Of a DNA stretch of 50,336 nucleotides, positions 8,339 through 29,930 are shown piece after piece. Source of the DNA: Myxococcota bacterium (lineage in GTDB: Bacteria > Myxococcota_A > UBA9160 > SMWR01); assembly GCA_041579295.1 (NCBI GenBank), contig JBFGGA010000002.1, positions 1-50,336 on the forward strand. Direction: 5' to 3'. The number at the start of each line of letters is the position of its first letter. Positions within the stretch are counted from its first letter, which is position 1. The position numbers and the translations under genes were made by a program. The notes under the pieces are model-generated. The model had not been told where the DNA came from and did no database searches. It was given only the letters and a program-made list of their open reading frames with translations.

Positions 8339-8468
8339 TCACCTTCGCGAGCGAATCGGTCGCCGTCGCGGCTGCGGTATGATGGGCGATCCCACGACGG
8401 CTCCACGGACACCGCAACCCGTCGCGTTCGAGCCGTAGCGTCCCGCTCGAAAGCACAGGAGCAGGTCG

Positions 8469-11400: not shown

Positions 11401-11534
11401 GATCCCACCTGCTCTGCCTGGACGGAAACAGCCTTCGCGAGCTGCTGATGCAGATGCCCGAGATTTCCTTCGCGATGTTCCGGGTTCTCGTGGAGCGGGT
11501 GCGGCAGGCAGAGGATCCGATTCGCAGCGGCTGA
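8469..11534 (+). CDS. multidomain membrane protein: TLC/NTT-like (MFS-fold) transporter domain + HEAT-repeat region + C-terminal cyclic-nucleotide-binding domain
   Basis: 1021 aa, with AGGAG upstream of the ATG. N-terminal ~430 aa has ~11-12 hydrophobic helices and the stretch HLWTFTADYFDTVASKRIVPLLTIGASIGGVVGG, reminiscent of ATP/ADP translocase. Central repeats are of the D-P-x-x-x-V-R-x-A-A type (HPSVDVRSACATALA, DPEARVRIAAIDGLV, DPDPVVRAEAARRGG, DADPGVRAAALKRTA, DRDPRVRSAAVYLLA, DPSAEVQFAAGSALI). C-terminal CAP-type signature FGEMAVLHDGTRTATVVA. Confidence 0.85.
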   Translation: MPMQGRTDLFWRVFSDVRAQERSRFLFFAGLAALVSLAQTLGLTGAEALFLAEVGIEYLPITIICGSISTVLGFAIYAARVGDVRNDSFFIQMLVGAGVALSATTSGIWLQIPGVAVFLICFFFVTQAIFVNHLWTFTADYFDTVASKRIVPLLTIGASIGGVVGGLVAVVMTGIAGAASLIVGWAIFLLAAASMVRIGRSRLRSWGPIDLEEADETSVEGIRGAIRYVRASKLGSALLVSAIGMILALVVARYMWLDAFALRFPDPADLAAFIGLFLAVTNALEIAIEMWVTPWVIRHLGVPGSNLIHPTLTLLSFGGLAYQYNIVSGSLARMNGEMLENALANPIRALLCNAIPLRFRGRVRAFIEGIAVYAGMSIGGAVLWALGSPEPFWLAVAGGFASAIYLVANIGVRREYVRTLVDQLRAGRIDLESLGDGIGKWEASRLAELWEELIRREGDRPSKSLLKLIKALADQGIVEPLLRALTHPSVDVRSACATALASTGRRDSAAALESSLDDPEARVRIAAIDGLVRLGGESRLGPRLHRLLEDPDPVVRAEAARRGGTPGAIALEKMIGSPDPAESIAALKGAPPALRAAVETRIRDADPGVRAAALKRTAEIAAEPSIEMEELRTALADRDPRVRSAAVYLLANVEGEEALEALAAALADPSAEVQFAAGSALISHGDAAADAIEGHLRGECERAVAAALRVAAHLGPDQSTRILHRELRRRARELWYWMIAQQRVTTDGGLANRFLRTAFLDGVARNQRIAFRILEFLEGSSVVRNIEKALRFGTTRARGDALEILSHLGDREAARLLVIFYESGSLADRIEMIHKYVSVPDDLQQMIENALKSDSRWIRMGALDFVDGVDRKPREEAIMERLLALKEIPLFKNLSLDQLEAVHQITKEVEYLPGEVILRQDELGDELYLLLEGRVRIFTNYGMPTEDEKPSQSAVSSFGEMAVLHDGTRTATVVAAERSHLLCLDGNSLRELLMQMPEISFAMFRVLVERVRQAEDPIRSG

Positions 11535-16103: not shown

Positions 16104-16119
16104 CTGCGTCCACCAGCGC

Positions 16120-17148
16120 CTAGAGCACGAGCTCGGCCAGCAATCGAACCGCCTCGGGCTGGTGGGCGCCCAACAGCAGCGTCGTCGCCGGAGACGCCTT
16201 CCAGGCCTGGATGCGATCCGCGATCCTGTCGCGCGTCCCGATGAGCGAGATCGCATCCGCGAGCTCGTCGGGTACCGCGGCGAGCGCTTCGTCCTTCTTC
16301 CCGTCGAGATACAGATCCTGGATCTTCGTCGCCGCCGCTTCGTAGCCGAGCCGCGTCGCGTAGTCGGTATAGAAGTTCTTCCCGCGCGCACCCATCCCTC
16401 CGATGTAGAGGGCGAGCATGCCCTTCACGGGAATCCGACAGCTCTCGAGATCGTCCCCGACGACGCAGGTCACGAACGGCGCGATGTCGAAGTCGCGCAT
16501 GCTCTTGGCGCCACCGGCGTCGGCGATTCCCTCTTCGATGAACGGCACGAGCGCCTCCGGTTTGCCGGGGTCCATCCAGACGGGAAATACGCCGTCGGCC
16601 ACCTCCCCGCTGCAGGCGAGTCCCTTCGGCGTGATCGCGGCGGTGTAGATCTTCAGATCCGGTCGGCCGTGGAGAATGCTCTTGAGCGGTTTGCCGAGCC
16701 CCGTCGCGCCCTCTCCGGTGAAGGGGATCTGGTAGTGGTAGCCCTTGTGCTCGAGTCGATGCTCTCGCGCGAGGATCTTGCGCACGATGCTCACGTACTC
16801 TCGCGTTCTCGTGAGGGGGCGCCCGTAGGCGACTCCGTGCCAACCCTCCACAACCTGGGGGCCGGAGGGTCCGATTCCGAGGGTGAAGCGCCCGCCGGAG
16901 AGTCGGTCGAGGGTCATCGCCGTCATCGCAGCCATCGCGGGCGTTCGAGCCGGCATCTGCATGATCGCCGTACCGAGTCCGATCCGGCTCGTCTTCGCCG
17001 CGATGAACGTGAGGGGGACGACCGCGTCGCATCCGTAGGCTTCGGCGGTCCACACCGAGCTGTAGCCGAGGCGCTCCGCCTCGAGGATCAGATCGTAGTC
17101 GATGCGTATGTCGGGCCCGAAATAACCGGTGAGTAGACCGAGTCGCAT
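16120..17148 (-). CDS. luciferase-like monooxygenase (LLM) class flavin/F420-dependent oxidoreductase
   Basis: 342 aa. Motifs [56 protein letters not shown] and VVEGWHG are typical of LLM TIM-barrels. Confidence 0.85.
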
Positions 17149-17271
17149 GGGAAGACCTCAGTTGGGGTGAGCCTGCGCCCGCAGCATACCGGATCTGGAT
17201 GCGCAGTGGAGACGCAGTCGTCGGCGACACGGCTGTGAAGTCGGGATCGCGTCTTGCCGAAAAGAGGCAAT

Positions 17272-18300
17272 GTGGCGGTAGACCGACATCGCGCCCAAGG
17301 TCGCATCCGTTGCGCGTCGCCGCGCGCCGCCCGCACGGCCCAGGCGTTCCTATGCGCCTGGCTCGCACTCTGCGGGCCGCTCGGCGGCGCGCAGGCGGTG
17401 CTCATCGAGACCGGCGACGGGACCGGAAACGTCAGCGCCCCGCCCGACGATCCGGGCTGGGCGAATGTCGGAGAGCGGAGCAACCTGACCGTCGTGTATC
17501 TGGGGCGGCGCTGGGTGCTGACCGCCGCTCACGTCGGCGCGGGAGACGTCGTCTTCGAGGGACAGACCTACTCTCCCGTGCCGGGCTCGGCGATCCAGTT
17601 CGAGAATCCGGACACCAGCCCGGCCGACCTCATGGTCTTCAAGGTCTTCGGGAGCCCGGGCCTGCCCCGGCTCGACATTCCCAGCTCGCCACCGGTGGTC
17701 GGCGATTCGCTCGTCGCGATCGGTCAGGGCCTGAACCGCGGCAGCGCGACCAGCTTCATGGGGATCGGCGGCTACGAGTGGGGAATCGGCAATAGCATGC
17801 GCTGGGGCACCAACTTCGTCTCGGAAGTCGATCTGTGGGTGGACACTTCCTACAGCTTCGCGGCGACGTTCAGCGACCCGCTGGATCCGAGCGCCACCCC
17901 CGACGAAGCCGCGGGCGCGAACGGAGACTCGGGTGGCGCAGCGTTCATCGAGATCGGAGGCGATTGGCATCTGGCGGGCATCATCTTCTCGATCAGCCAG
18001 TACGTCGGCCAGCCGAGCAACACGTCGATCTACGGCAACGAGCTCTTCGCGGTGGACCTCTCGTTCTATCGCGATGACATCCTGGCGGTGATCGAGCAGA
18101 AGAGCTGCTCGGATGGCCTCGACGACGACGGCGACGGCTTCACGGACTACCCCGCAGATCCGGAGTGCGCGAGCCCCAACGACGACTCGGAATCGATTCC
18201 GGGCGTCGCCTCCCTCGCCATGGCCGGCAGGATCGCGCTGGTGGGATCGCTGCTGCTCGCGTTCGCCGCGCGTTCACGCGCCCGCGGCGCGGAGGCTTGA
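17272..18300 (+). CDS. secreted trypsin-like serine protease with C-terminal Asp-rich Cys-bracketed motif and sorting-signal-like anchor
   Basis: His motif WVLTAAHV and Ser motif GDSGGAAF. Signal peptide FLCAWLALCGPLGGAQA. C-terminus is CSDGLDDDGDGFTDYPADPEC, then IPGVASLAMAGRIALVGSLLLAFAARSRAR. Start uncertain: TTG 17254 (track) or GTG 17272 with AAGAGG 4 nt upstream. Confidence 0.8.
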   Translation: MAVDRHRAQGRIRCASPRAARTAQAFLCAWLALCGPLGGAQAVLIETGDGTGNVSAPPDDPGWANVGERSNLTVVYLGRRWVLTAAHVGAGDVVFEGQTYSPVPGSAIQFENPDTSPADLMVFKVFGSPGLPRLDIPSSPPVVGDSLVAIGQGLNRGSATSFMGIGGYEWGIGNSMRWGTNFVSEVDLWVDTSYSFAATFSDPLDPSATPDEAAGANGDSGGAAFIEIGGDWHLAGIIFSISQYVGQPSNTSIYGNELFAVDLSFYRDDILAVIEQKSCSDGLDDDGDGFTDYPADPECASPNDDSESIPGVASLAMAGRIALVGSLLLAFAARSRARGAEA

Positions 18301-18351
18301 GCCGCCGCGGCGAGCGAAACGGCCCGACGCGGCGAAGAGTCCGATCCGGGA

Positions 18352-18663
18352 TCAGCGGCGCTCGAGCCGACGCGCCTCGGGGTCGACGGCGGGCGGCCGG
18401 TAGCTGTAGCCCTGGGTGTCGAGCGCGATCGTTCGCGGGCCCTCGGCGGCATCGGCGGAGTCATCGAGAACCACGGTGACGGAGGTCGCGGCGCCGGCCT
18501 CGGAGGTCGGGTCGCAGGTCGTCTCCGGAGCGACGAGCCGCAGCGAGACCACGCCGATCGCGTCGTCGTCGGCGCGCACGGCCTGCACACCGGGCAGGCT
18601 CAGCGCCAGCGTCGCGATCGCGCTCAGGTAGCCGGCGCAGGTCTTCCAGTCGGGCGGTCTCAT
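18352..18663 (-). CDS. small secreted hypothetical protein (103 aa)
   Basis: ATG is preceded by GGAGA 5 nt upstream. Signal-peptide-like AGYLSAIATLALSLPGVQA. GC3 above 90 percent in this frame. No recognisable family. Confidence 0.6.
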   Translation of the reverse strand: MRPPDWKTCAGYLSAIATLALSLPGVQAVRADDDAIGVVSLRLVAPETTCDPTSEAGAATSVTVVLDDSADAAEGPRTIALDTQGYSYRPPAVDPEARRLERR

Positions 18664-18835
18664 GGATGTCTCCGCGCTGCCGTTCGCCTATCCTCTCTCC
18701 CAATCGGCGCATCGCCCCCAGAGCTTGACGCGAATTCGACGCCGACTGCATCTGCATTGCCCTGCTGCTGCGCTCGTGTTTCGCGGAAGCTGCGGAAGAA
18801 CTGCCGACCGGACGGCCCACCGAGCGGGAGGCTCC

Positions 18836-19876
18836 ATGCACCTCGTCACGTTCGAGCGCTCGAGCGCTCACCGCGACTGGAACGACACCGGCGCGCTGGA
18901 AGATGGGGCGATGGGCTTCGAATCGCTCGAACCCATGCGGCTGGGCTCGCGGCGGCTCGGCGCCGTTCTCTCGGTCGGCCAATACGCGGGATGGGTGGTG
19001 GACCTCAACCGCGCGCTCGCGATCAAGCTCGCCTACGACGACGTCGGCGCCCCGGAGATCGAGGCGGATTCGCTGGTGCCCACGGACATGCTCTCCTTCC
19101 TGCGCCTCGGCCGCGCGGCGATGAAGGCGGCGAAGACGGCGCTCGGCTTCGCGATCGAAACCCTCGGCTGCTACAACGCGCCCGATTTCCTGCGAGCCGG
19201 CGCCGTCGAGCCAGCGGGCCGCGTGCGCTTGTGTGCGCCGCTGCCGCGGCCGGGAAAGATCATCGGAGCAACACACGAAGATGTCGGTCCGGACACCTCG
19301 CACTCGGACGACTCCGCGACGCCGAGACTCTTCTTGAAGGCGCCGTCCGCGGTGATCGGGCCGGACGACGAGATCGCGCTCCCGGAACACGCGCGCCGCG
19401 TCTACTTCCAGGGGGCCCTGGCCGCCGTGATCGGGGAGCGGACCCGGAACGTCGCGGTCGCCGAAGCACTCGACCGCGTCGCGGGTTACTGCGCGGCCAA
19501 CGACGTAACCAGCCCTGAGATCGAAGACGCTTCGGTCGGCAGATCCTGCGACACCTTCGCACCCCTCGGACCGTGGCTGGTGACGGCGGACGAGGTGCCG
19601 GATCCCACGAATCTCGGCATCCGCTCCAGCGTGTCGGGCAAGGAGGTGCAGATCGCGAGGACCAAGGAGATGCGGTTTTCGATCGCGCAGATCATCGCAC
19701 ACGCGGCGCGGATCATGGCGCTCGAAGCGGGCGACGTGATACTCACGGGACCGCCCGCCGCCAGCGGAGCATCCGGGCTGCGCAAGCGCCGCCTTCGCGA
19801 CGGCGACCTCATCGAGGTCGAGGTCGAATCTCTGGGAAGGTTGCGCAATTACGTGAGGACGGCGAAGTCGAACTAG
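18836..19876 (+). CDS. fumarylacetoacetate hydrolase (FAH) family protein
   Basis: ATG 18836 with GGGAGG upstream; 346 aa. C-terminal FAH domain motifs are present (KAPSAVIGPDDEIALP, GALAAVIG, AANDVTS, DTFAPLGPWLVTADE, GDVILTGPP). Confidence 0.85.
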   Translation: MHLVTFERSSAHRDWNDTGALEDGAMGFESLEPMRLGSRRLGAVLSVGQYAGWVVDLNRALAIKLAYDDVGAPEIEADSLVPTDMLSFLRLGRAAMKAAKTALGFAIETLGCYNAPDFLRAGAVEPAGRVRLCAPLPRPGKIIGATHEDVGPDTSHSDDSATPRLFLKAPSAVIGPDDEIALPEHARRVYFQGALAAVIGERTRNVAVAEALDRVAGYCAANDVTSPEIEDASVGRSCDTFAPLGPWLVTADEVPDPTNLGIRSSVSGKEVQIARTKEMRFSIAQIIAHAARIMALEAGDVILTGPPAASGASGLRKRRLRDGDLIEVEVESLGRLRNYVRTAKSN

Positions 19877-19877
19877 A

Positions 19878-20163
19878 TGCCCGCGCAGTTCCGTCGGGGG
19901 AACGCGTTGCCGGGCGCTGGCGGGGGCCCAGTTGGCCTGGGTGATCGCCAGCACGCGCAGTTCCGTCGGGGGAACGCGTTGCCGGGCGCTGGCGGGGGCC
20001 CAGTTGGCCTGGGTGATCGCCAGCACGCGCAGTTCCGTCGGGGGAGCGCGTTGCCGGGCGCTGGCGGGGGCCCAGTTGGCCGGGGTGATCGCCAGCACGC
20101 GCAGTTCCGTCGGGGGAGCGCGTTGCCGGGCGCTGGCGGGGGCCGAGTCGGCCGGGGTGATGG
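19878..20163. repeat. 72-bp direct tandem repeat, about 4 copies, between convergent genes
   Basis: Period 72 (CGCGCAGTT at 19882, 19954, 20026, 20098). Copies 1 and 2 are identical, copy 3 has 2 substitutions, and copy 4 has 4 before diverging. Each unit holds two imperfect hairpins (ACGCG..GTTCC-gtcggg-GGAAC..CGCGT and GCTGGCG..CCCAG-ttggc-CTGGG..CGCCAGC). Confidence 0.9.
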
Positions 20164-20934
20164 CTAGATTCCGGAGCCCTTTTCTTCCAGGTGGATCCCG
20201 CACTCCTTGAGGTCGGAGCTCTCCCACCACCAGCGCCCGGAACGCAGATCGTCGCCGGGGCCGATCGCCCGCGAGCACGGGTCGCAGCCCACCGACGGAT
20301 AGCCCTCGCCGTGGAGCCGATTGACCGGAACGTCGAACTCCCGCACGTAGTCGAGAACCCGCTCGCGCGTCCAGTCGGCGATCGGGTTGAGCTTCGCGAT
20401 GCCACCGTGGGCCCGATCGATTTCGATCTTCTCCGTCTTCTCGCGCGCGCTGCTCTGATCGCGGCGAAGCCCGGTCACCCAGGCGTCGAGCCCCGACAGG
20501 AATCGGTTGAGCGGCTCGACCTTGCGGATCCTGCAGCAGAGCTCGCGCTTCTCGACGCTCTCGTAGAAGAGGTTCAAGCCGTGGTCCCGAACCATCGACT
20601 GCACGCGCTGCGCGTCCGGGAAGATGACCTCGACGGTCTTGCCGTAGCGCTCCCGCACGCGGTCGATGAGGTCGTAGGTGGCCTGCGGCAGGCGCCCGGT
20701 ATCGAGCACGAACACCCGCGAGGCGGGATCGAGCCGGTGCATCATGTCGAGCAGCACGAGCCCCTCGTGAGCCCCGAACGAGCACGAGAGCGCGATCCGA
20801 TCCGCAAAATTTTCCAGTCCCCAGATCAAGATCTCGCGCGCGCTCAGCGACTCCGCGACACCGGACCGGATGTACTCCAATACCTCGTCATTCAATCTAT
20901 TTTCCGATCCTTTCGCGGCGATCTCGAGTGCCAT
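20164..20934 (-). CDS. cysH: phosphoadenosine phosphosulfate / adenylyl-sulfate reductase (thioredoxin-dependent, Fe-S type)
   Basis: 256 aa from MALEIAAKGSE. PAPS-reductase core is present (LSCSFGAHEGLVLLDM, VFVLDTGRLPQATY, DAWVTGLRRDQS). It also carries the CC (ELCCRIRKVEP) and CxxC (SVGCDPCSR) cysteines typical of APS-reductase-type CysH. Confidence 0.85.
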   Translation of the reverse strand: MALEIAAKGSENRLNDEVLEYIRSGVAESLSAREILIWGLENFADRIALSCSFGAHEGLVLLDMMHRLDPASRVFVLDTGRLPQATYDLIDRVRERYGKTVEVIFPDAQRVQSMVRDHGLNLFYESVEKRELCCRIRKVEPLNRFLSGLDAWVTGLRRDQSSAREKTEKIEIDRAHGGIAKLNPIADWTRERVLDYVREFDVPVNRLHGEGYPSVGCDPCSRAIGPGDDLRSGRWWWESSDLKECGIHLEEKGSGI

Positions 20935-20942
20935 GGCCAAAA

Positions 20943-20970
20943 AGCATACTTGAGACTCGCACATTTTCAA
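20943..20970 (-). promoter_or_regulatory. candidate promoter of cysH (TTGAAA-16-TATGCT), -10 ends 8 nt before the ATG; leaderless candidate
   Basis: Minus strand reads TTGAAA atgtgcgagtctcaag TATGCT ttttggcc ATG, in the most AT-rich patch of this region. No Shine-Dalgarno. Confidence 0.5.
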
Positions 20971-21046
20971 ATAATACAACTGTGAACGACCGTATTAATG
21001 AGCGCGCGGATATCGGGCGAGCGCTGCGCGGACGCCGCGCGTCGGC

Positions 21047-22396
21047 TCAGTCGCGGATCGCCGCGACGAGCTGCTGGAAGACCTCGAGGTAGCGATCGAT
21101 GTCTTCGGGCACCGCGGCGAACGAGACCGCGGGGCCCGCGGTGACGACGGCCTCCCAGATGCCGCGGTTGGCCAGAAAGACGCGCTGCAGGCGGTTCGTT
21201 CCGAAGTCTGCGGCACGGCTCGCCTCGAGGGTGTTGCGCGGGGCCCGCTCGGCGTAGCACACGCCGGTGCGGCAGTAGAGCCGGTGCGCGGACCAGGGCA
21301 GGCCGGCCGCTTTCGAGATCCGCTCGATGCCGTCGGCGAGCCGCTCGCCGAGGTCTGCGGTGCGCGCGTGTCCCTCGGGCGTGAGGATCTCGCGCAGCGC
21401 GGCCCGAGCGCCGACGAGCCCGAGCGGGTTGCCGTGGAGGGTTCCGCCCAGCCACAGCGAAGTCGAATCGCCGCTGGGCCACTCGTCCCGCTCGACGTTC
21501 GCCTCACAGACGCGCGCGAGCGACTCGGTCATCCCGTAGACGCCGAGCGGAATCCCGCCCGCGATGCTCTTGCCCATCACCAGCAGGTCCGGCTCCAGGC
21601 TCCATGCCCGCGTGAGCCCTCCCCACGCGCAGACGTGGGTGTGCGTTTCGTCGACGAGCAGCAGCGCCCCATGGCTGCGGGAGAGATCGCGCAGCGACTT
21701 GTGGAAGCCCGGATCGGGCGCGACGACGTTCACGTTCGTGAGCGCGGGCTCGACCATCACGCAGGCCGTCGAGCGCTCGCGCAACACGCGCTCGACCGCA
21801 TCGAGATCGTTGAACTGGACCATGACGCTGTCGGGCCAGCGGCCGGACTGCAGCTCGTTCTCTCGGGCCGCCATCATCGTGTCGTCGATCAGTCCGTGGT
21901 ACCCGCCGTCGAAGGTCAGGATCCGCCGGCGGCCGGTCGCGGCGCGCGCGATGCGAATCGCCTCCGTGTTCGCGCTGGTCGCAGAGAGCGTGTACTGCCA
22001 GAACGGCAGCCCGAAGCGATCGGCCAGCAGCTCGGAGACCTCGACGCTCGCCTCGCTCGGCAGCAGGAACTGGGAGCCGCGCGCAACCTGCTCGGACACG
22101 GCGTCGACGACCTGCTGGGGCGCGAACCCACACGACATGCTCATGTCCGCGTGGTTCATGTCCAGGTAGCGGTGGCCGTCGATGTCGGTGAAGTAGGTGC
22201 CCCGCCCTTCCTTCACGAACAGGGTCGGGTGCGCGTAGAGCCCGGACATCCACGGCATCGGAACGCCGCTCGGCATCGAACGCCGCGCGCGCTCGAGCAT
22301 CTCGATGCTCTTCGGCCGTTCGGCGATGAAGCGCGCGAGCTCCTCTTCGTAGAGGTCGTCGATCCTTCCGCGGTCGATCTCGGCCACCTTCGGCAC
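21047..22396 (-). CDS. class-III PLP aminotransferase, glutamate-1-semialdehyde aminomutase-like
   Basis: 449 aa with a GTG start. Motifs YTLSATSANTEAIRIARAATGR, GGYHG, LLLVDETHT and the PLP-lysine context LVMGKSIAGGIPLG are as in GSA-AM-like enzymes. Confidence 0.85.
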   Translation of the reverse strand: MPKVAEIDRGRIDDLYEEELARFIAERPKSIEMLERARRSMPSGVPMPWMSGLYAHPTLFVKEGRGTYFTDIDGHRYLDMNHADMSMSCGFAPQQVVDAVSEQVARGSQFLLPSEASVEVSELLADRFGLPFWQYTLSATSANTEAIRIARAATGRRRILTFDGGYHGLIDDTMMAARENELQSGRWPDSVMVQFNDLDAVERVLRERSTACVMVEPALTNVNVVAPDPGFHKSLRDLSRSHGALLLVDETHTHVCAWGGLTRAWSLEPDLLVMGKSIAGGIPLGVYGMTESLARVCEANVERDEWPSGDSTSLWLGGTLHGNPLGLVGARAALREILTPEGHARTADLGERLADGIERISKAAGLPWSAHRLYCRTGVCYAERAPRNTLEASRAADFGTNRLQRVFLANRGIWEAVVTAGPAVSFAAVPEDIDRYLEVFQQLVAAIRD

Positions 22397-22596
22397 TCCC
22401 GGGAGCTCCGCCGGCTCGACGGGCCCGAAGAATCCGCGGGCCCGCCCCGCACACGATAGCGCTCGATACCGGGGCGATCCCCGGGTTGCGGGCAGTGCCG
22501 CGAGATCGACTCGAAGTTGGTTGGTGACCCGAATTTCGCCATAGGCGGAATTCCCGCCGAGCCGATATCCTCCCCGCCCGACATCTGGGAGGAACC

Positions 22597-24018
22597 ATGA
22601 ATTCGAACGACGCAGCGGGCCTCGCGATCGCGGAGGTCGGCGGCGGAACCGCAGAGCTCCAGGCGAAGGACAACCGATTCGTCCACCCCTGGGAAAACCT
22701 GAAGAACATCGGAAAGAACAAGCGACCCGTTCTCACCCGAGGCGAGGGAATCTACGTCTACGACAGCGACGGCAACCGCTACATCGACGGCCCCGCCGGG
22801 ATGTGGTGCGTGAACGTCGGCTACGGGCGACGCGAGATCGCGGACGCAGTTGCGAAGCAGCTCGCGGAGATGCCCTACGACAGCCCGTGGTCGTTCACGA
22901 ACATCCCCGCGGCGCAGCTCGCCGAACGCCTGACGGCGCTTGCGCCCGGAGACCTCAACCACGTCTTCTTCACGACGGCCGGCTCGCTCGCCGTCGATAG
23001 CGCGCTTCGATTCGTGATGTTCTACAACACCATCCTCGGTCGGCCCGAGAAGCGCCACATCATCACGAGACAGGACGCCTATCACGGGAGCACCTATCTC
23101 ACCGCTTCCTGCAGCGGAAAGGAGCGCGACAAGACCTATCAGGTGTTCGAGAAGGGGTTCATCCACCACCTCCCCTCGCCCAATCCCTATCGGCGCCCGG
23201 AAGGCATGAGCATCGACGCGTTCCGTGACGAGAAGGTCGCCGATCTCGAGAACAAGATCCTCGAGCTCGGCCCGGAGAACGTCGCCGTGTTCATCGCCGA
23301 GCCGGTGCTCGCGTCCGGCGGTGTGGTCGTTCCGCCGCCCGGCTACCAGAAGAAGTGCCTCGAGGTCTGCAGGCGCCACGACGTCCTCTACATCTCCGAC
23401 GAGGTCGTCACCGCTTTCGGCCGCTGCGGCCACATCTTCGCGAGCGAGGCCGTCTTCGACATCGTCCCGGACATCATCACGACCGCGAAGGGGATCTCGT
23501 CCGGCTACGTGCCCCTCGGCGCCACCTTCATCTCGGATCGACTGATCCAGGAGGCGGCGGCGGCGGGCTCGCCGCACTCGATCTTCGCCAACGGCTTCAC
23601 CTACTCGGGGCATCCGGCCTCGTGCGCGGCGGGACTCGCGACGCTCGACATCCTCGAGCGCGAGCGGATCTGCGAGCACGTTCGCGAGATCACGCCCTAC
23701 TTCCAGCAGAGATGGCAGGAGCTCCGCGACATCCCCCTCGTCGGCGACGTCCGCGGAGCGGGGTTGATCGCGTGCGTCGAATGCCAGATCGACCCGGAAA
23801 GAGACGACACCCTGAAGGTCGACTACGAAATCGGAAACCGCATCGACGATTACTGCCACGAGCTCGGCTTGATCCTGCGCCCCTTCATCAATCAGTGCAT
23901 CGTCTCTCCGCCGTTGACGATCACGCGCGAGCAGATCGACGAAATGGTCCAGATCCTCCGCACCGGGATCGAAAAAGCGATGGAAGACGCGCGAAGGGAC
24001 GGCCTGTTCAAGGGCTAG
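22597..24018 (+). CDS. class-III PLP aminotransferase (omega-amino acid/polyamine:pyruvate transaminase-like)
   Basis: 473 aa, with GGGAGG SD. Motifs FVHPWENL, YIDGPAGMWCVNVGYGR, AYHGST, ISDEVVTAFGRCG and TTAKGISSGYVPLG. Confidence 0.85.
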   Translation: MNSNDAAGLAIAEVGGGTAELQAKDNRFVHPWENLKNIGKNKRPVLTRGEGIYVYDSDGNRYIDGPAGMWCVNVGYGRREIADAVAKQLAEMPYDSPWSFTNIPAAQLAERLTALAPGDLNHVFFTTAGSLAVDSALRFVMFYNTILGRPEKRHIITRQDAYHGSTYLTASCSGKERDKTYQVFEKGFIHHLPSPNPYRRPEGMSIDAFRDEKVADLENKILELGPENVAVFIAEPVLASGGVVVPPPGYQKKCLEVCRRHDVLYISDEVVTAFGRCGHIFASEAVFDIVPDIITTAKGISSGYVPLGATFISDRLIQEAAAAGSPHSIFANGFTYSGHPASCAAGLATLDILERERICEHVREITPYFQQRWQELRDIPLVGDVRGAGLIACVECQIDPERDDTLKVDYEIGNRIDDYCHELGLILRPFINQCIVSPPLTITREQIDEMVQILRTGIEKAMEDARRDGLFKG

Positions 24019-24044
24019 CCGAGCGTTCGGCACGGGAGTACCCG

Positions 24045-24890
24045 ATGCACTTCGGCGTGACGATCTTCCCCACCGAATACGCGATTCCGATGAACGATCT
24101 CGGTTGCGCCGCCGAAGAGCGCGGCTTCGAATCGCTGTGGGTTTCGGAGCATACGCACATCCCTGTCTCGCGAAGGTCACCGTGGCCCGGAGGCGCCGAG
24201 CTTCCGAAGATGTACTACGACACGTTCGACCCGTTCGTGGCGCTCGCGTCCGCGGCAGCCGCGACGTCCCGAATCAGGCTGGCGACGGGAATCTGCCTGG
24301 TCGTCGAGCGCGACCCGATCCACACCGCGAAGCTGGTGGCCTCGCTCGATCAGCTCTCGGGCGGCCGCTTCGCGCTCGGGGTCGGCGGCGGCTGGAACCT
24401 CGAGGAGATGGAGAACCACGGCACTCGCCCGGAGAGCCGCTTCAAGTTGCTGCGCGAACGCATCGAGGCGATGAAGGCCATCTGGACCGAGGAGAAGGCC
24501 GAGTATCACGGCGACTTCGTCGACTTCGACCCGATCTTCATGTGGCCGAAGCCGATCCAGAAGCCGCATCCCCCGATCCACGTGGGCGGCGGATTTCCGG
24601 GCGGGGCGCGGCGCGCGATCCGCTACGGCGACGGCTGGATGCCGATCGGCGGCCGCGACGGCGACATCGCCGAGCTGCTGCCTCGATTCCGCGAGATGGC
24701 GCGCGACGCCGGGCGCGACCCGGAGGCGCTCGAGGTCTCGGTGTTCGCCGCGGAGGCGAGCGAATCCGCGCTGGCGCGCCAACGCGACGCGGGAATCTCG
24801 CGCGCGGTGCTGATGCTCCCGCCCACCTCGCGCGACGAGATCCTCCCGATCCTCGACCGCTACGCGGATCTGATGCGAGCGGTCGGCTAG
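24045..24890 (+). CDS. LLM class flavin/F420-dependent oxidoreductase (short form)
   Basis: ATG 24045 with GGGAG upstream; 281 aa. Motifs FESLWVSEHTHIP, RIRLATGICLVVERDPIHTAK, LSGGRFALGVGGGWN and HPPIHVGG. The upstream part of track ORF 23355..24890 overlaps the preceding gene and was dropped. Confidence 0.85.
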   Translation: MHFGVTIFPTEYAIPMNDLGCAAEERGFESLWVSEHTHIPVSRRSPWPGGAELPKMYYDTFDPFVALASAAAATSRIRLATGICLVVERDPIHTAKLVASLDQLSGGRFALGVGGGWNLEEMENHGTRPESRFKLLRERIEAMKAIWTEEKAEYHGDFVDFDPIFMWPKPIQKPHPPIHVGGGFPGGARRAIRYGDGWMPIGGRDGDIAELLPRFREMARDAGRDPEALEVSVFAAEASESALARQRDAGISRAVLMLPPTSRDEILPILDRYADLMRAVG

Positions 24891-25408
24891 AGCGGGCGAG
24901 ACGCGACCCAGCGCTGCACGGCGGCGGGGTCGCGAACCCGGCGCGCCAGCGTCTCGATGCTCTCGCCGAGCGTCGGGTGCACGAGATCCGGGGCCAGCGC
25001 GCAGAGCGGCTCGAGCACGAAGGCCCGCTCGGCCAGGCGCGGGTGCGGAATTTCGAGATCGGGCTCGCTCAGCTTCCGATCCCCGTAGAGCAGCAGATCG
25101 AGATCGAGCGTGCGGGGCGCGTTGCGTTCGGATCCGCGCGTGCGGCCGCGACCGACTTCGATCTCGAGCAACCGCTCCAGCAGCGCGCCGGGAGTCAGTT
25201 GGGTGGCGAGCTCGGCGACGGCGTTCAGATACAGGCGCTGTGGCAGCGGGCCGACCGGATCCGTCTCGTACACCGGCGAGACGGCGACGACTTCGATTCC
25301 GCGAGTCGCCCGCAGCGCGGCGAGCGCCGCGGCGAGGTGCGCGTCGCGGTCACCGAGATTCGAGCCCAGCGCGACGTAGACCCGCTCTTCGATCGCCTCG
25401 GCGTCCAT
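24887..25408 (-). CDS. folK: 2-amino-4-hydroxy-6-hydroxymethyldihydropteridine diphosphokinase
   Basis: 173 aa. Motifs VYVALGSNLGDR, VSPVYETDPVG, PRTLDLDLLLYG, IPHPRLAERAFVLEPL. Confidence 0.9.
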   Translation of the reverse strand: MDAEAIEERVYVALGSNLGDRDAHLAAALAALRATRGIEVVAVSPVYETDPVGPLPQRLYLNAVAELATQLTPGALLERLLEIEVGRGRTRGSERNAPRTLDLDLLLYGDRKLSEPDLEIPHPRLAERAFVLEPLCALAPDLVHPTLGESIETLARRVRDPAAVQRWVASRPL

Positions 25409-25424
25409 GCGCGGATTCTACAGC

Positions 25425-25430
25425 TACAAT
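25425..25430 (+). promoter_or_regulatory. candidate -10 box (TACAAT) 8 nt upstream of the aminotransferase GTG start; leaderless candidate
   Basis: TACAAT-ccaccgtc-GTG inside the 30-bp gap between divergent folK and the aminotransferase gene. No SD and no convincing -35. Confidence 0.3.
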
Positions 25431-25438
25431 CCACCGTC

Positions 25439-26716
25439 GTGTCAGCGCCTGCCAATCTCCCGCCCGAGATTGCGACTCCGATACCAGGGCCGCGCTCGCG
25501 AGCGCTCGCCCGGCGGCTCGGGGTCGTCGAGTGCCACAACATCATCTGCGTCGCCCCGCAGCCCCCGATCTTCTGGGAGCGGGCTTCGGGATCGAACGTC
25601 TGGGACGTGGACGGCAACCGCTTCGTGGACCTCACGGCCGGCTTCGGCGTGGCCAACATCGGCCACGCGCATCCGGGCGTGAGCCGGGCGGTCGCCGCGT
25701 GCGCCGGGCGCCTGCTGCACGGGCTCGGCGACGTGCACCCCTCCCTCGTCCGGCTCGAGCTGCTCGAGGCGCTCGTGCGTCACTTTCCGGGCGGCGTGCC
25801 GGCCCGCGCGATCCTGGGCTGCTCGGGCTCCGACGCGGTGGAGATCGCGCTCGAGACGGCGCTGCTCGTCACGGGCGCTCCCGGCGCGGTGGCGTTCGAA
25901 GGCGCGTACCACGGGCTGAGCCTCGGGGCGCGCGACGCGACCTGGCGGCCGACGTTCCGCGAACCGTTCGCCGCGCGACTCCCGGGCCTGACGGCGTTTG
26001 CGCGCTTCGGCGACGCGGCGGACGTGCGCCGCGCCGCGCGCGCCTGCGCGGCCCCTGTCGGTGCGGTGCTCGTCGAGCCGATCCAGGGGCGCGGCGGCGA
26101 GCGCATCCCGCCGGACGGTTTCCTCACGGAGCTCCGCAAGATCTGCGATGCCGAGGGTTGGCTGCTCGTCGCAGACGAGGTCTACACGGGCTTCGGGCGC
26201 ACGGGGCGATGGTTTGCGTGCGATCACGAGGGCGTCGTCCCGGACCTGCTCTGCGTCGCGAAGGGGCTGGCCTCCGGCATGCCGATCTCGGCGTGCCTCG
26301 GACGCGCGGCGCTGATGGACGCCTGGCCGGTCTCCGAGGGCGAGGCGCTGCGCACGCAGACCTTCCTCGGACATCCGCCGAGCTGTGCGGCCGCGCTCGC
26401 CTCGATCGCGGTGCTGGAAGAGGAGAAGCTGGTCGAACGCGCCGCGGAGCTCGGTGCCGTCGCGCTGGAGCGGCTCGGCGAGCGCTTGGCCGGGCGAGCG
26501 GGCATTCGCGACGTGCGGGGTCGCGGACTGCTTCTGGCCGTCGAGCTCGACAGCGCCGAGCGCGCGGATCGCGGCTGCGCGAACGCGCTCGCGGCAGGGC
26601 TGATCGCGCTGCCGAGCGGCGACGACGGCCGCGTGATCTCGATCTGCCCGCCGCTGTGCATCGAGCGCAAGCTGCTCGCGCTCGCGATCGACCGGTTGAC
26701 GGAGGCCATCCCGTGA
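25439..26716 (+). CDS. class-III PLP aminotransferase (4-aminobutyrate/acetylornithine aminotransferase-like), first gene of a 3-gene operon
   Basis: 425 aa from GTG 25439. Motifs PEIATPIPGPRSRAL, VWDVDGNRFVDLTAGFGVANIGHAHP, GAYHG, EPIQGRGG, VADEVYTGFGRTG, CVAKGLASGMP. Confidence 0.85.
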   Translation: MSAPANLPPEIATPIPGPRSRALARRLGVVECHNIICVAPQPPIFWERASGSNVWDVDGNRFVDLTAGFGVANIGHAHPGVSRAVAACAGRLLHGLGDVHPSLVRLELLEALVRHFPGGVPARAILGCSGSDAVEIALETALLVTGAPGAVAFEGAYHGLSLGARDATWRPTFREPFAARLPGLTAFARFGDAADVRRAARACAAPVGAVLVEPIQGRGGERIPPDGFLTELRKICDAEGWLLVADEVYTGFGRTGRWFACDHEGVVPDLLCVAKGLASGMPISACLGRAALMDAWPVSEGEALRTQTFLGHPPSCAAALASIAVLEEEKLVERAAELGAVALERLGERLAGRAGIRDVRGRGLLLAVELDSAERADRGCANALAAGLIALPSGDDGRVISICPPLCIERKLLALAIDRLTEAIP

Positions 26717-27825
26717 GTGCGGACCCCCGCCGCGCACGAATCGATCACCGCGTGCTCGAGTGGATGCGCGAATCCCGCTGGAGCTACGGCGAAGAGCGCT
26801 TCGAGGCGCTCGCCCTCGAGCTGTTCGCGTTTCAGTTCGCGCACTGCGAGATCTATCGGCGATACTGCGAAGGGCGCGGCCAAACCCCCGAAAAGGTCGA
26901 GACCTGGCGGCAGATCCCGGCGGTTCCGACCAGCGCGTTCAAGGAAGTCGAGCTGCGCTGCTTCCCGGCCGAGTGCACCGAGCACCGCTTCCGCACGAGC
27001 GGAACCTCGACGGACGTCCGGGGAACGCTCCACCTGGACACGCTGGAGCTCTACGAGGCCTCGCTGCTCCCGACCTTTCGCCGCTTCGTGTTTCCGGAGT
27101 TCCTGATGCCCGAGGATCGCGCGGCAATCCGCGTGCTCGCCCCGTCGAACGTCGAGCAGCCGGATTCGTCGCTCTCCCACATGTTCGCCGTGGTGCTCGA
27201 CGCGCTCGGCGAGCCGGGCAGCGATTTCGACGTCGAGCACGGCAAGCTCCAGTTCGACCGCGTGCTGACGGTCCTCGTCGAATCCGCGGCTTCGGAGGTG
27301 CCCATCGCGCTGTGCGGAACCGCCTTCGCGCTCGTGCACCTGATCGACCACATGAACGAGCGCGGCGTGCTGATCGGCCTACCGTCGGCATCGCGCATCA
27401 TGGAGACCGGAGGCTTCAAGGGGCGCTCCCGCGAGGTTCCGCGCAACGAGCTCTATGCCGAAATCAAACGCGTGCTCGGTGTGCCCGCCGAGCGGATCGT
27501 CAACCAGTACGGCATGACGGAGCTGGGCAGCCAGTTCTACGATTCGGTGATTCGCGCACCGAGCGAGCCCCGCCGCAAGCTCGGCCCGCCCTGGGCGCGG
27601 GTGGTCATCGTCGACCCCGAGACGGGCCACGAGGCGGCGACGGGGCAGGTGGGATCCATCGTCGTCGTCGATCTCGCCAACACCGGAAGCGTGCTTTCGC
27701 TGCGAACCGGCGACCTCGGCCGCGCCGTGCTCGACGGATTCGAGGTGATCGGGCGCGAGCCCGGCGCGGAGGCGCGGGGCTGCTCGATCGGCGCCGACGA
27801 GATCTTGGACCTGGAATCCCCGTGA
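26713..27825 (+). CDS. LuxE-like acyl-protein synthetase (adenylate-forming)
   Basis: 370 aa. GTG start overlaps the upstream stop (GTGA). Adenylating-enzyme-like motifs FRTSGTS, METGGFKGRS and QYGMTELGS. The overall layout matches the LuxE family as I recall it. Confidence 0.8.
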   Translation: MSADPRRARIDHRVLEWMRESRWSYGEERFEALALELFAFQFAHCEIYRRYCEGRGQTPEKVETWRQIPAVPTSAFKEVELRCFPAECTEHRFRTSGTSTDVRGTLHLDTLELYEASLLPTFRRFVFPEFLMPEDRAAIRVLAPSNVEQPDSSLSHMFAVVLDALGEPGSDFDVEHGKLQFDRVLTVLVESAASEVPIALCGTAFALVHLIDHMNERGVLIGLPSASRIMETGGFKGRSREVPRNELYAEIKRVLGVPAERIVNQYGMTELGSQFYDSVIRAPSEPRRKLGPPWARVVIVDPETGHEAATGQVGSIVVVDLANTGSVLSLRTGDLGRAVLDGFEVIGREPGAEARGCSIGADEILDLESP

Positions 27826-29099
27826 CGCCCGATGAGATCGCCGAGAACTTCGCGCGCCTGCGGGCCGCGGGTGAACGGCTCAAGCGGCGACCGATCGGCG
27901 AGGTGCTCGACGCACTCGGCGCGGTGCTCGACGCCTGGCGCGATCCGCGGTCCCACTGGCATCGCGACCTGATCGAGCGGCTGCCCGCGGCCACGGGATT
28001 CAGCGCACCGACGGTCGCAGAAGGGCTGCGCCGAGCACTCGAGGGATGGACGGGCGACGCATTGCGGAAGCTCGCGATTCGCGAGCTCGGCCCGATCGAG
28101 GCGCTCGACACCGCTGCGGATCGCAGGGTCTCGGGCTTCGAGACGACGGCCGTCCTGCTCGCGGGATCGCTCCCGATGCCGAGTCTGCTCGCGCTGATCG
28201 CTCCGCTGGCGGTGCGCTCGCCGGTGCTCGCCAAATGCGCTTCGCGCGATCCCCTGACGCCGCACCTCGTCGCCCAGTCGATCGCGGAGGCCGACGACGA
28301 GCTCGGGCGCTGCATCCGCGTCGCGGACTTTCCCGCCGCCGACGAGGGTTGCACGCAAGCGCTGCTCGAAGCGGACTGCATCTGGGCCACGGGATCGGAT
28401 GCCACGATCGCCGCCGTGCAGTCGCAAGTAAAGCCGCCCCGGCGCCTGGTCGCGGACGGGCATCGGTTCTCGATCGCGGCGGTCGCCGCGCCGGAGAGCG
28501 CAGCGCACCGCGCGGACCTGGCGCGGCGGCTGGCCGTGGACGTCGCGCTCTGGGACCAGCTGGGTTGCCTCTCGCCGATCGAGGTCTTCGTCGCCGATCC
28601 GGACCCCTCGCACGCGGCCGCGCTCGGCGAAGCGCTCGCGCTCGCGCTCGCCGACGCGGAGCGAAACTGGCCGCGCGGCTCCATCGATGCCAGCGCCGCG
28701 CACGCGATCGCGCAGCAGCGCGCGGAAGCCGAAGTGCGCCGCGCGGCGGGACGCGCGGTCGCGATCCACCTCAGCGACTCGACGGCCTGGACGGTGATCG
28801 TCGAAGACGGCATCGCGCCGAGGCCGGCCCCGCTGCATCGCTTCGTGCGCGTCGTCCCGGTGCCCGATCGCGAGCAGCTGCTCGCCGCGCTCGAACCCGT
28901 CGGCGCCCAGCTCGCCGCGGTTGCGGTCGAGGGCTTCGGCGAGGAGAGCGAACGGCTCGCGCGCGCGCTCGCCGAGCTCGGTGCCTCGCGCGTCTGCGCC
29001 CCGGGCTCGCTGCAGAGCCCGCCGCTGGATTGGCGCCACGGCGGGCGCGGCGTCCTCGCGCCGCTCGTCCGCTTCGCCGACATCGAGCCGCTCCGCTAG
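27822..29099 (+). CDS. LuxC-like acyl-CoA/acyl-protein reductase (aldehyde-forming)
   Basis: 425 aa. GTG start overlaps the LuxE-like stop (GTGA). It has a WDQLGCLSP segment matching the catalytic-Cys region of LuxC-type reductases. Position directly after the LuxE homologue. Confidence 0.8.
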   Translation: MTPDEIAENFARLRAAGERLKRRPIGEVLDALGAVLDAWRDPRSHWHRDLIERLPAATGFSAPTVAEGLRRALEGWTGDALRKLAIRELGPIEALDTAADRRVSGFETTAVLLAGSLPMPSLLALIAPLAVRSPVLAKCASRDPLTPHLVAQSIAEADDELGRCIRVADFPAADEGCTQALLEADCIWATGSDATIAAVQSQVKPPRRLVADGHRFSIAAVAAPESAAHRADLARRLAVDVALWDQLGCLSPIEVFVADPDPSHAAALGEALALALADAERNWPRGSIDASAAHAIAQQRAEAEVRRAAGRAVAIHLSDSTAWTVIVEDGIAPRPAPLHRFVRVVPVPDREQLLAALEPVGAQLAAVAVEGFGEESERLARALAELGASRVCAPGSLQSPPLDWRHGGRGVLAPLVRFADIEPLR

Positions 29100-29354
29100 C
29101 CGGCGACCGCGAGCCGCTCCGCCCGCGGCGCGGCCGCGCCACGCCGCGGGCGCATCCGCGAGATTCGCCGGCGAGCGGCGAGCCCCTCCCCGGCCCCCCC
29201 CGCAGGCGCGCGCGAGCGGATGGGCGGGCGGATGCGCGACAGCGCCGCTGGGCGCGCGGAACCCGGCCCCGGCGCTGGACGGGAGGCCCCAGCGGCCGCG
29301 AGGATTCGATAAATACTGGATTTCATTGATAAAAGGATTAATAAAGAACCGATC

Positions 29355-29393
29355 TGGTCCGATATTTACAGGACCTAATTGGTCCGATATCTT
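29355..29393 (+). promoter_or_regulatory. candidate suf promoter (TTTACA-17-TATCTT) overlapped by repeated operator-like motif TGGTCCGATAT
   Basis: TGGTCCGATAT occurs at 29355-29365 and 29380-29390. The arrangement is GGTCC-N10-GGACC-N5-GGTCC. The -35 lies at 29365-29370 and the -10 at 29388-29393, in an AT-rich island 46 nt upstream of the Rrf2 regulator ATG. Confidence 0.5.
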
Positions 29394-29438
29394 TCCAGCG
29401 TCGATCTACGGATCGACTGCAGCGCGAGCGAGTAGACG

Positions 29439-29930
29439 ATGTTTCGAATCAGCCGCGTCACCGACTATGGAATCGTCGTCATGGCCCATCTCGCCGAGCG
29501 CGGAGATGGCGACTCCCACAACGCGCGCGAGCTGGCGGAAGACACCCAGCTTCCCGCGCCCGTCGTGAGCAAGATCCTCAAGTCGCTGACGCGCGCGGGC
29601 CTGTTGGTTTCGCAGCGCGGATCCAAGGGCGGCTACAGCCTCGCGCGCAGCCCGCGCGAGATTCCGGTGGTCGAGATGATCACCGCGCTCGAGGGCCCGG
29701 TCGGAATCACCGAGTGCACCACGCACCCGGGAACCTGCGCGCAGGAGGCGAATTGCCAGGTGCGCGACCCGTGGCAGAGGATCAACGGCGCGGTGCACGC
29801 CGCACTCGCGAAGATCACGCTGGCCGACCTCGCCAAGCCGTTCGAGGCGAGCGGCCCCTTCGTGTCACTCGTCGGGATGGAGGGCGACGCGCTCGGCCGC
29901 GCTGCATCGGACGAGCGGCGATCGGAGTAG
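29439..29930 (+). CDS. Rrf2-family transcriptional regulator (IscR/SUF-regulator type)
   Basis: 163 aa. MFRISRVTDYGIVVMAHLA plus winged-helix SKILKSLTRAGLLVSQRGSKGGYSLAR. Three clustered Cys (CTTHPGTCAQEANC). Sits first in the suf operon. Confidence 0.85.
   Translation: MFRISRVTDYGIVVMAHLAERGDGDSHNARELAEDTQLPAPVVSKILKSLTRAGLLVSQRGSKGGYSLARSPREIPVVEMITALEGPVGITECTTHPGTCAQEANCQVRDPWQRINGAVHAALAKITLADLAKPFEASGPFVSLVGMEGDALGRAASDERRSE

Follow-up and report, generated by a model that had tools for sequence, protein, structure and literature searches.

An aminotransferase–LuxE-like–LuxC-like gene trio of uncultured Myxococcota as a candidate carboxylate-to-amine pathway with a possible connection to queuosine biosynthesis

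Three overlapping genes and the proteins they encode

We analysed a stretch of 50,336 nucleotides from a Myxococcota bacterium (GTDB lineage Myxococcota_A; UBA9160; SMWR01), positions 1 to 50,336 of contig JBFGGA010000002.1 (assembly GCA_041579295.1), which we refer to as the window and whose base composition is ~68% G+C. Near its centre lies a trio of co-directional genes, each an uninterrupted open reading frame (ORF) on translation, that encode an aminotransferase (AT) dependent on pyridoxal 5'-phosphate (PLP) followed by relatives of the LuxE and LuxC proteins of luminous bacteria:

25439-26716, + strand: class-III (fold-type I) PLP aminotransferase (AT), lead gene, GTG start, 425 aa; Pfam Aminotran_3
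26713-27825, + strand: LuxE-like acyl-protein synthetase (adenylate-forming), 370 aa; Pfam LuxE
27822-29099, + strand: LuxC-like acyl-thioester reductase of the aldehyde dehydrogenase (ALDH) superfamily, 425 aa; Pfam LuxC

The stop codon of the AT gene overlaps the GTG start of the LuxE-like gene in a GTGA at 26713-26716 (the junction reads CCGTGAGTG), and the stop codon of the LuxE-like gene overlaps the GTG start of the LuxC-like gene in a second GTGA at 27822-27825 (junction CCGTGACGC). A Shine-Dalgarno sequence, GGAGG, is located at 26701-26705, 8 nt ahead of the LuxE-like start. A preliminary description of this DNA had reported the co-directional arrangement and both overlaps, and they are confirmed in the sequence. 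The motifs that it singled out (FRTSGTS, ETGGFKGRS, QYGMTELGS and WDQLGCLSP) are all present in the translations, and the assignment of the proteins to the Aminotran_3, LuxE and LuxC families is upheld by Pfam profile searches, which place all three above the gathering thresholds.

The AT matches Aminotran_3 (PF00202) at 2.9e-90 (303 bits), and the lysine that forms the Schiff base with PLP, K275 (26261-26263), is invariant in 78/78 sequences. It falls below every NCBIfam equivalog cut-off, the top model being PRK06058 (296 bits vs 639), and its match to the PigE model (NF053554; 5.9e-68, 230 bits vs a cut-off of 850) is confined to the transaminase part. None of the names carried by its near relatives is informative. 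The closest solved structures are GabT enzymes (3OKS, 2.5e-68), with which the AT shares the fold, the PLP lysine and most cofactor motifs, but alignment to 3OKS reveals three replacements in the active site: R141 of GabT becomes L160 (25916-25918; AYHG-R to AYHG-L), E211 becomes R218 (26090-26092; QG-E-GG to QG-R-GG), and R398, the arginine of the C-terminal 'vvRflPPL' strand, becomes S401 (26639-26641). We take R141 of GabT to bind the substrate carboxylate, and E211 and R398 to form the switch pair that deals with the alpha-carboxylate of the keto or amino acid. All 78 AT orthologues have L160 and R218 and no arginine at position 401, and F69, G97-D98, S284 and an inserted G-E302 are further clade-specific residues. 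In an exhaustive search for representatives the orthologues of the window AT collapse to one cluster at 50% identity. The next relatives, at 45-51% identity, carry the same signature, which is present in 92 of the 128 full-length top representatives, canonical R/E/R and K/E/R enzymes being in the minority. Judged by these alignments, the AT is a member of a large uncharacterised clade that is devoid of the carboxylate-binding arginines of GabT. From the replacements we infer that the amine/aldehyde substrate has no carboxylate at the usual position. R218 would then have assumed the part of the lost arginine in donor binding, so that the amino-acid donor is probably bound through R218 and not through the canonical C-terminal arginine.

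The LuxE-like protein matches Pfam LuxE (PF04443) over residues 19-359 (3.9e-18, 66 bits vs gathering 24.9) and aligns with LuxE in the LuxC-LuxE structure (7XC6_E) at 1.9e-11, residues 28-336 corresponding to 36-334 and the overall lengths being 370 aa and 373 aa, respectively. LuxE, although adenylate-forming, has no C-terminal subdomain of the usual kind; it features a Lys238/Arg355 pair and carries the acyl group on Cys364 in the motif 358-TRxxKGCxLS-367, from where the group is handed to Cys296 of LuxC (P. phosphoreum numbering; PMC9157457). Similarly, the LuxE-like protein comprises the adenylate-forming N-terminal domain only, the C-terminal subdomain being replaced by a tail of ~20 residues. 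Its K236 (27418-27420) is aligned with LuxE K238, and R348 (27754-27756), invariant in 80/81 orthologues, is presumably equivalent to Arg355, as the alignment to 7XC6_E stops before that residue. The tail contains C357 (27781-27783) in the sequence AEARGC357SIG, with the motif RGCS(I/L)(A/G), and this cysteine is kept in 80/81 orthologues. A C-terminal cysteine also exists in the LuxE-like homologues of Pantoea and Verrucomicrobia.

The LuxC-like protein matches Pfam LuxC (PF05893) over residues 24-417 of 425 (3.1e-48, 165 bits vs gathering 21). Its catalytic cysteine, C249 (28566-28568), lies in WDQLGCLSP, is aligned with YDQQACFS of 7XC6_A and is invariant in 86/86 sequences. The alignment to 7XC6_A stops at residue 441 of the 477 in the chain and leaves only 9 query residues, and the protein is devoid of ~35 N-terminal residues as well as of the ~29-residue C-terminal element (P460-P488) of LuxC from luminous bacteria. 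In LuxC, the C-terminal segment closes the long L-shaped 40-Å hydrophobic acyl cleft (PMC9157457). The NCBIfam equivalogs for the lux-operon proteins are missed by far, with 65 bits vs a cut-off of 550 for LuxE (NF052244) and 40.9 bits vs 750 for LuxC (NF052251). Thus, the LuxE-like and LuxC-like proteins are distant members of their families and not orthologues of the bioluminescence enzymes. In sum, the trio shares with LuxC-LuxE (7XC6) the two families, adjacent and translationally coupled genes, a LuxE without C-terminal subdomain, its lysine, a cysteine in a [KR]GCx[LI] context and the LuxC cysteine. However, the proteins are only ~20-25% identical, the LuxC-like protein is shorter by ~50 residues, a fatty acid is an improbable substrate, and the partner is an aminotransferase, with no LuxD, LuxAB or LuxG. 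The preliminary description had already pointed to the lack of LuxD and LuxAB in the operon; this is borne out, the nearby luciferase-family gene encoding an F420-type luciferase-like monooxygenase (LLM).

Conservation, shuffling and fusion of the trio

Homologues of the LuxC-like protein number in the hundreds, nearly all of them in metagenome-assembled genomes (MAGs) of uncultured Myxococcota or 'Deltaproteobacteria'. In a sample of 80 species-representative genome loci from the lineage, with ~20 kb per genome, the AT-LuxE-LuxC neighbourhood is conserved: the trio is complete, contiguous and co-directional in all assessable species representatives (70/70), at LuxC identities down to 42%, so that the association of the genes is far beyond chance. 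The trio alone is the constant unit in the lineage. The folK gene, which encodes 6-hydroxymethyl-7,8-dihydropterin pyrophosphokinase, lies divergently upstream within 3.5 kb in 58/63 assessable related genomes, with a folK-side gap of 24-90 bp in many of them and with a gene for a cation diffusion facilitator (CDF) efflux protein often inserted between folK and AT. Whether folK and the trio are linked functionally, perhaps through a shared GTP/pterin theme, or by plain synteny is uncertain. The LLM gene and a second aminotransferase gene are found upstream in the closest relatives only. Directly after the LuxC-like gene, 21/67 relatives encode a B12-binding radical S-adenosylmethionine (SAM) protein of 520 residues with a DUF4070 domain (e.g. 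L002 11354-12922, L005 9961-11511 and L012 11311-12849), for which even the best NCBIfam models (TIGR04013 and those of PhpK-type and ladderane-type B12 radical-SAM enzymes) score weakly. Neither this gene nor a remnant of it is present in the window.

Beyond the lineage, a metagenome scan with the alignment of the AT clade retrieved 80 loci, which together with 7 earlier ones gave 87, and LuxE and LuxC were sought in them by tblastn with mixed queries and by iterated hidden Markov model (HMM) searches of six-frame ORFs. LuxE and/or LuxC adjoins the clade AT in 41/87 loci, in the orders AT-E-C, E-C-AT and C-AT. Moreover, clade members include fusion proteins, namely LuxC-AT (P0127) and AT-LuxE (P0148 and P0162), the arrangements seen on the contigs being LuxE | LuxC-AT, AT-LuxE | LuxC, LuxC | AT and queE | AT | LuxE | LuxC. 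The genomic contexts of these trio loci are unrelated to one another. In four of them (L118, 8269-9999; L122; L125; L134) the trio directly follows rpoD with overlapping or abutting coding regions, and some others sit after a gene for O-acetylhomoserine sulfhydrylase. A tRNA-Met gene follows the trio in L118 and L122; as a link to queuosine this neighbour was rejected, tRNA-Met not being queuosine-modified.

In L101 (11320-13866) the LuxE-like and LuxC-like sequences occupy one uninterrupted ORF of 848 codons, which is either a LuxE-LuxC fusion or an artefact of sequencing or assembly. Together with the overlapping genes, this fused frame is indirect evidence for a putative physical complex of the LuxE-like and LuxC-like proteins and for acyl transfer between their cysteines.

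The closest cultured homologues of the LuxE-like protein are encoded on megaplasmids of Pantoea, Azospirillum and Priestia (42% identity for the LuxE-like and 29% for the LuxC-like protein). These clusters (L087 7890-11298, L088 7917-13758 and L089 7875-13711) share the LuxE-like/LuxC-like pair with the trio, including the C-terminal GCS motif, but have a short-chain dehydrogenase/reductase (SDR) and an NMT1/THI5-type ATP-binding cassette (ABC) uptake system in place of the aminotransferase. They could represent an acid-to-aldehyde-to-alcohol pathway for an imported small acid, and since the pair is accompanied there by an SDR, the LuxE/LuxC core seems to be paired with one or another enzyme that consumes the aldehyde. 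The LuxE-like gene of the megaplasmids is annotated as 'long-chain fatty acid--CoA ligase', and the Azospirillum cluster has an Rrf2 regulator upstream. Occurrence in phages or viruses, considered by analogy with 7-deazaguanine DNA-modification clusters, was discarded: viral contigs encode only distant class-III aminotransferases (23-32% identity), the exceptions being one partial AT match at 40% (L181) and one weak LuxE-like phage match.

The conservation of the trio across phyla, in shuffled orders and with fusions, strongly supports an acid-aldehyde-amine logic, and we consider it highly probable that the three proteins form one coupled pathway from a carboxylic acid via an aldehyde to a primary amine. 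The LuxE-like protein would adenylate the acid and load it as a thioester on Cys357, whereupon its flexible tail would deliver the acyl moiety to the LuxC-like protein, at Cys249, for release of the aldehyde driven by NAD(P)H; both of these steps are supported by residue conservation. Conversion of the aldehyde into a primary amine by the class-III AT would complete the sequence, as the operon structure and the fusions suggest. The preliminary description had allowed for this conversion or its reverse. Of the two, the backward direction is hard to credit for a reductase of the LuxE/LuxC type, which is driven by ATP.

Such logic is not new in nature. PigE and TamH, thioester-reductase/transaminase di-domain enzymes of prodigiosin and tambjamine synthesis, and TabE/TabA from tambjamine BE-18591 also proceed from thioester to aldehyde to amine with a class-III transaminase, and TabE is in an ALDH cluster that contains LuxC. 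However, these systems act on chains bound to acyl carrier protein (ACP) or CoA, are encoded in secondary-metabolite clusters and have no LuxE-type activator, whereas the trio occupies a core chromosomal locus; in PigE and TamH, moreover, the reductase is a fused SDR-type domain, unlike the separate ALDH-type gene of the trio. Engineered cascades of carboxylic acid reductase (CAR) and omega-transaminase have the same net conversion (acid, ATP, NADPH and amino donor to primary amine), but CAR is a single polypeptide of adenylation, peptidyl carrier and reductase domains (A-PCP-R) that needs phosphopantetheinylation, as opposed to the LuxE cysteine tail and ALDH-type reductase of the natural trio. 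Kinase/reductase/transaminase trios with a similar logic exist in the arginine, proline and ectoine pathways. A literature search retrieved no description of a LuxE-LuxC-transaminase module or of an aldehyde route to 7-aminomethyl-7-deazaguanine (preQ1), in agreement with the preliminary description, whose author knew of no characterised operon of such composition.

The queE connection and the nature of the acid

The nearest functional clue to the substrate comes from outside the window, in the form of queE as lead gene of the operon in other phyla. In 11 loci (L094, L096, L097, L099, L101, L120, L127, L157, L166, L171 and L175) this small radical-SAM gene immediately precedes the trio and is co-directional with it. 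Of the LuxEC-linked loci of non-Myxococcota type with enough upstream sequence, roughly half contain queE, a proportion read off a table and not counted by script. Against the trusted cut-off of 300 bits for TIGR04349, seven of the encoded proteins score 303-313 and that of L175 scores 283.5, while those of L097, L099 and L166 were identified by tblastn/HMM similarity only and have no TIGR04349 score. In a neighbour-joining tree of the clade, the queE-linked ATs fall into at least four separate branches, one of which consists of Verrucomicrobiota MAGs. L096 is a clean four-gene unit of queE (9354-10004), AT (10001-11383), LuxE and LuxC in which queE and AT overlap by 4 bp and the genes on both sides are on the opposite strand.

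Loci of the Verrucomicrobiota type contain, between queE and AT, a conserved ORF of 80-96 residues that has no Pfam or NCBIfam match:

L120, 9719-9979
L127, 9689-9979
L157, 7501-7746
L171, 9679-9921

The product of QueE is 7-carboxy-7-deazaguanine (CDG), a carboxylic acid, which QueC and QueF take to preQ1 via the nitrile preQ0 (PMC5372724, PMC10516641). Given the recurrence of queE upstream and the acid nature of its product, we propose that the trio may reduce CDG to 7-formyl-7-deazaguanine and aminate the latter to preQ1. To our knowledge, the queuosine pathway is regarded as fully elucidated, and no way from CDG to preQ1 is known other than that by QueC and QueF. The trio would be a nitrile-free stand-in for both, at a cost of one ATP, one NAD(P)H and one amino donor. 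It has no sequence relationship with QueC and QueF, yet the proposed start and end are the same, and queE is its operon partner in several phyla, as in queCDEF operons; instead of the amide, the nitrile and the four-electron nitrile reduction used by QueC and QueF, it would proceed by thioester, aldehyde and transamination with no preQ0. That the window trio converts CDG to preQ1, bypassing QueC and QueF, is a reading drawn from gene neighbourhoods in other phyla, and we rate it slightly below an even chance. The broader proposal, according to which the module is a nitrile-free CDG-to-preQ1 route that replaces QueC/QueF across large clades of uncultured bacteria in the Myxococcota, Verrucomicrobiota and further phyla, is a little more tentative still. 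The invariant leucine in place of R141, the acidic residues D98 and E302 and the missing C-terminal element of LuxC together predict a substrate that is neither carboxylated nor lipid-like. The housekeeping contexts of the trio (folK and suf in the window, rpoD and tRNA-Met elsewhere) fit the supply of a precursor for tRNA modification. Also in keeping with the CDG-to-preQ1 reading, neither queC nor queF is present in the queE-linked loci. Searches with Escherichia coli tblastn queries revealed no queC, queF, queD, tgt, queA or folE in any of the ~20-kb loci or the window, which is uninformative for whole genomes. With lower probability, the radical-SAM/DUF4070 protein may act later in the same pathway, either as a third type of epoxyqueuosine reductase or as a deazaguanine-modifying methylase.

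Several observations weigh against the proposed CDG-to-preQ1 route. Outside the lineage, queE is missing from the vicinity of about half of the LuxEC-linked loci that could be assessed (again an unscripted count), and in the window and its 86 close relatives queE is not adjacent, its place being taken by folK. The connection to the window is thus one of homology only, the window AT being 46-54% identical to the QueE-linked ATs. Furthermore, the substrate of QueE, 6-carboxy-tetrahydropterin (CPH4), is a carboxylic acid as well, so that a neighbouring queE does not by itself identify the acid. Nor does the route as proposed account for the radical-SAM/DUF4070 partner after LuxC or for the conserved ORF between queE and AT. 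Rfam detected no preQ1 riboswitch in 13 loci or in one targeted upstream region; since many lineages do without this riboswitch, its absence is weak evidence. Finally, neither LuxE nor LuxC is encoded near the AT of at least 15 clade members for which 2.6 kb or more of sequence is available on each side; around such stand-alone ATs lies a mixed set of genes (Nfu, ThyX, pterin-4a dehydratase, SDR and others). Forty clade-specific positions are common to the window-type, QueE-linked, other LuxEC-linked and stand-alone members, however, and their equal conservation in all groups argues for a clade that looks isofunctional, with the partner genes elsewhere in the genomes of stand-alone members.

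If the acid is not CDG, it could be a different small acid, (hetero)aromatic or polar but non-carboxylated, handled by the same enzymology, such as CPH4 or pterin-6-carboxylate en route to an aminomethyl-pterin, or another metabolite. We regard this as unlikely, albeit as the most serious competitor of the CDG route. It would account for the pterin enzyme encoded by the conserved divergent neighbour folK (58/63 genomes), for the pterin-4a-carbinolamine dehydratase gene beside stand-alone clade members (a cluster of five loci) and for the repeated presence of queE, whose product consumes the pterin carboxylic acid CPH4. An AT without carboxylate-binding arginines would also suit it, and the NMT1/THI5-type transporter that accompanies the LuxE/LuxC pairs of Pantoea, Azospirillum and Priestia suggests small polar substrates. 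However, aminomethyl-pterin has no known role, whereas preQ1 is a required intermediate, and operons normally join consecutive steps and not competitors for one substrate. Moreover, the adjacency of folK amounts to a single event at the level of the lineage and is often broken by the CDF transporter gene.

A further reading, implied by the C8-C18 fatty acids that the preliminary description had named for assays next to other carboxylates, is that fatty acids are turned into fatty aldehydes and fatty amines for a lipid or natural product, as by TabE/TabA or TamH in tambjamine biosynthesis. LuxE and LuxC of luminous bacteria do use myristic acid, TabE (a LuxC-related reductase) and TabA (a class-III transaminase) make dodecylamine, and the missing arginine for a distal carboxylate in the AT is compatible with a hydrophobic aldehyde. 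Yet the LuxC-like protein has no counterpart of the C-terminal element that gives LuxC its long hydrophobic cleft, both lux-operon equivalogs are missed widely (65 vs 550 bits for LuxE, 41 vs 750 bits for LuxC), and the AT clade has the invariant acidic residues D98 and E302. Nor are genes for a thioesterase, ACP, polyketide synthase or non-ribosomal peptide synthetase (PKS/NRPS) or lipid metabolism conserved nearby in ~170 loci. The locus is single-copy, syntenic and of a housekeeping type, unlike a variable biosynthetic cluster, and the repeated linkage to queE has no lipid rationale. The AT signature, the missing LuxC C-terminus and the housekeeping contexts thus speak against a fatty acid, and we consider this reading improbable.

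Slightly less probable again is a semialdehyde route from an amino acid or dicarboxylate in the manner of ArgB/ArgC/ArgD, ProB/ProA/ornithine aminotransferase (OAT) or Ask/Asd/EctB, with ornithine, a diaminobutyrate-type compound, gamma-aminobutyrate (GABA), beta-alanine or a diamine as product. Those pathways also activate, reduce and transaminate, and in sequence the AT comes closest to GabT, acetylornithine, putrescine and LysJ transaminases. However, the carboxylate-binding arginine of GabT, acetylornithine aminotransferase (AcOAT) and OAT is an invariant leucine in the AT, the E211/R398 pair has been remodelled to R218/S401, all NCBIfam equivalog cut-offs are missed, and linkage to arg, pro, lys or polyamine genes is not seen. 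That the three genes are adjacent without sharing a pathway, the AT for instance acting independently, would accommodate the stand-alone clade members but is very improbable in view of the overlapping stop and start codons, the 70/70 conservation and the shuffled orders and three kinds of fusion in other phyla.

Should the CDG-to-preQ1 route prove true, a second and chemically different way to preQ1 would alter the genome-based prediction of queuosine capacity, as genomes without queC and queF are currently scored as salvage-dependent, and preQ0 would no longer be an obligatory branch-point metabolite in the organisms concerned. It would also provide a function for a very large uncharacterised clade of 'GabT-like' aminotransferases and offer the biocatalysis toolbox a natural reductase/transaminase pair for heteroaromatic acids. 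Whatever the substrate, the trio constitutes a conserved three-enzyme carboxylate-to-amine module in several phyla, with fusions and with active-site residues that are testable.

Neighbouring genes and further observations

The trio is bounded by folK on one side and by a spacer on the other, and the following features lie around it:

24887-25408, - strand: folK, Pfam HPPK 1.2e-38, divergent neighbour of the trio
25409-25438, no strand: divergent intergenic gap of 30 bp between folK and AT, read from the sequence
29100-29438, + strand: downstream boundary, a 340-bp spacer, GC-rich and then turning into the AT-rich promoter region of the Rrf2-suf operon
24045-24890, + strand: Bac_luciferase-family gene, F420-type LLM oxidoreductase, TIGR03619 275 bits, 550 bp upstream of the trio
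22597-24018, + strand: PRK07036-type aminotransferase, class III
21047-22396, - strand: HemL-like PRK07046-type aminotransferase, class III
16120-17157, - strand: F420-type luciferase-like oxidoreductase
14793-16424, - strand: BioA aminotransferase, class III

The promoters of folK and of the trio must overlap the 30-bp gap or fall inside adjacent coding sequence. Downstream, the spacer leads to an Rrf2-sufBCDSU operon. Two exact copies of TGGTCCGATAT, 25 bp apart, are located at 29355-29365 and 29380-29390 upstream of the Rrf2 gene, in the sole AT-rich stretch of the region and just 5' of this regulator gene that heads suf; the single sigma-70-like match in 24800-29600 is at 29365-29393. The TGGTCCGATAT repeats and the AT-rich stretch are probably an Rrf2-family operator and promoter. 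Since suf has its own AT-rich promoter region and repeats, the trio is a transcription unit separate from suf. Inclusion of Rrf2-suf in the trio unit was rejected on the grounds of this promoter and repeat and because suf is missing from the trio loci of other phyla.

Further upstream of folK are an F420-type luciferase-like oxidoreductase, three class-III aminotransferases, a PAPS-reductase-family gene and an FAH-family hydrolase. The 10 kb 5' of the trio (14793-24890) are unusually dense in class-III aminotransferase genes and also encode the two F420-type luciferase-like oxidoreductases. The three aminotransferases (BioA, PRK07036-type and HemL-like) were considered as one cluster with the trio and rejected, as they are not co-conserved. 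The Bac_luciferase-family gene at 24045-24890 was dismissed as a hidden LuxAB: it is of the F420-type LLM family (TIGR03619), is split from the trio by folK on the opposite strand and is restricted to the closest relatives. Indeed, the gene pair at 22597-24890 is confined to these relatives (L001 and L007-L011) and resembles an insertion, specific to their lineage, that separates the PAPS-reductase gene from folK.

Two RNA-related observations were made in the queE-linked loci. L101 has a near-threshold match to the Acido-Lenti-1 RNA at 8688-8736 (33 bits vs gathering 37). In L175 (15612-16059), ARAGORN calls five 64-nt 'tRNA-Asp (anticodon ATC)' genes at a spacing of 96 bp beside a genuine tRNA-Lys; Rfam keeps the tRNA-Lys only, and the five calls are most likely false and due to a tandem repeat.

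The window contains no queuosine genes, and its remainder consists of ordinary metabolism and transport genes. Two paralogous MttB-family (trimethylamine methyltransferase-like) genes at 45673-47202 and 47928-49592, both on the - strand, flank an ORF of 228 codons, which suggests a locus for demethylation of quaternary amines or methylamines. The gene at 8439-11534 encodes a protein of 1031 residues with multiple HEAT repeats and a C-terminal cyclic-nucleotide-binding domain.

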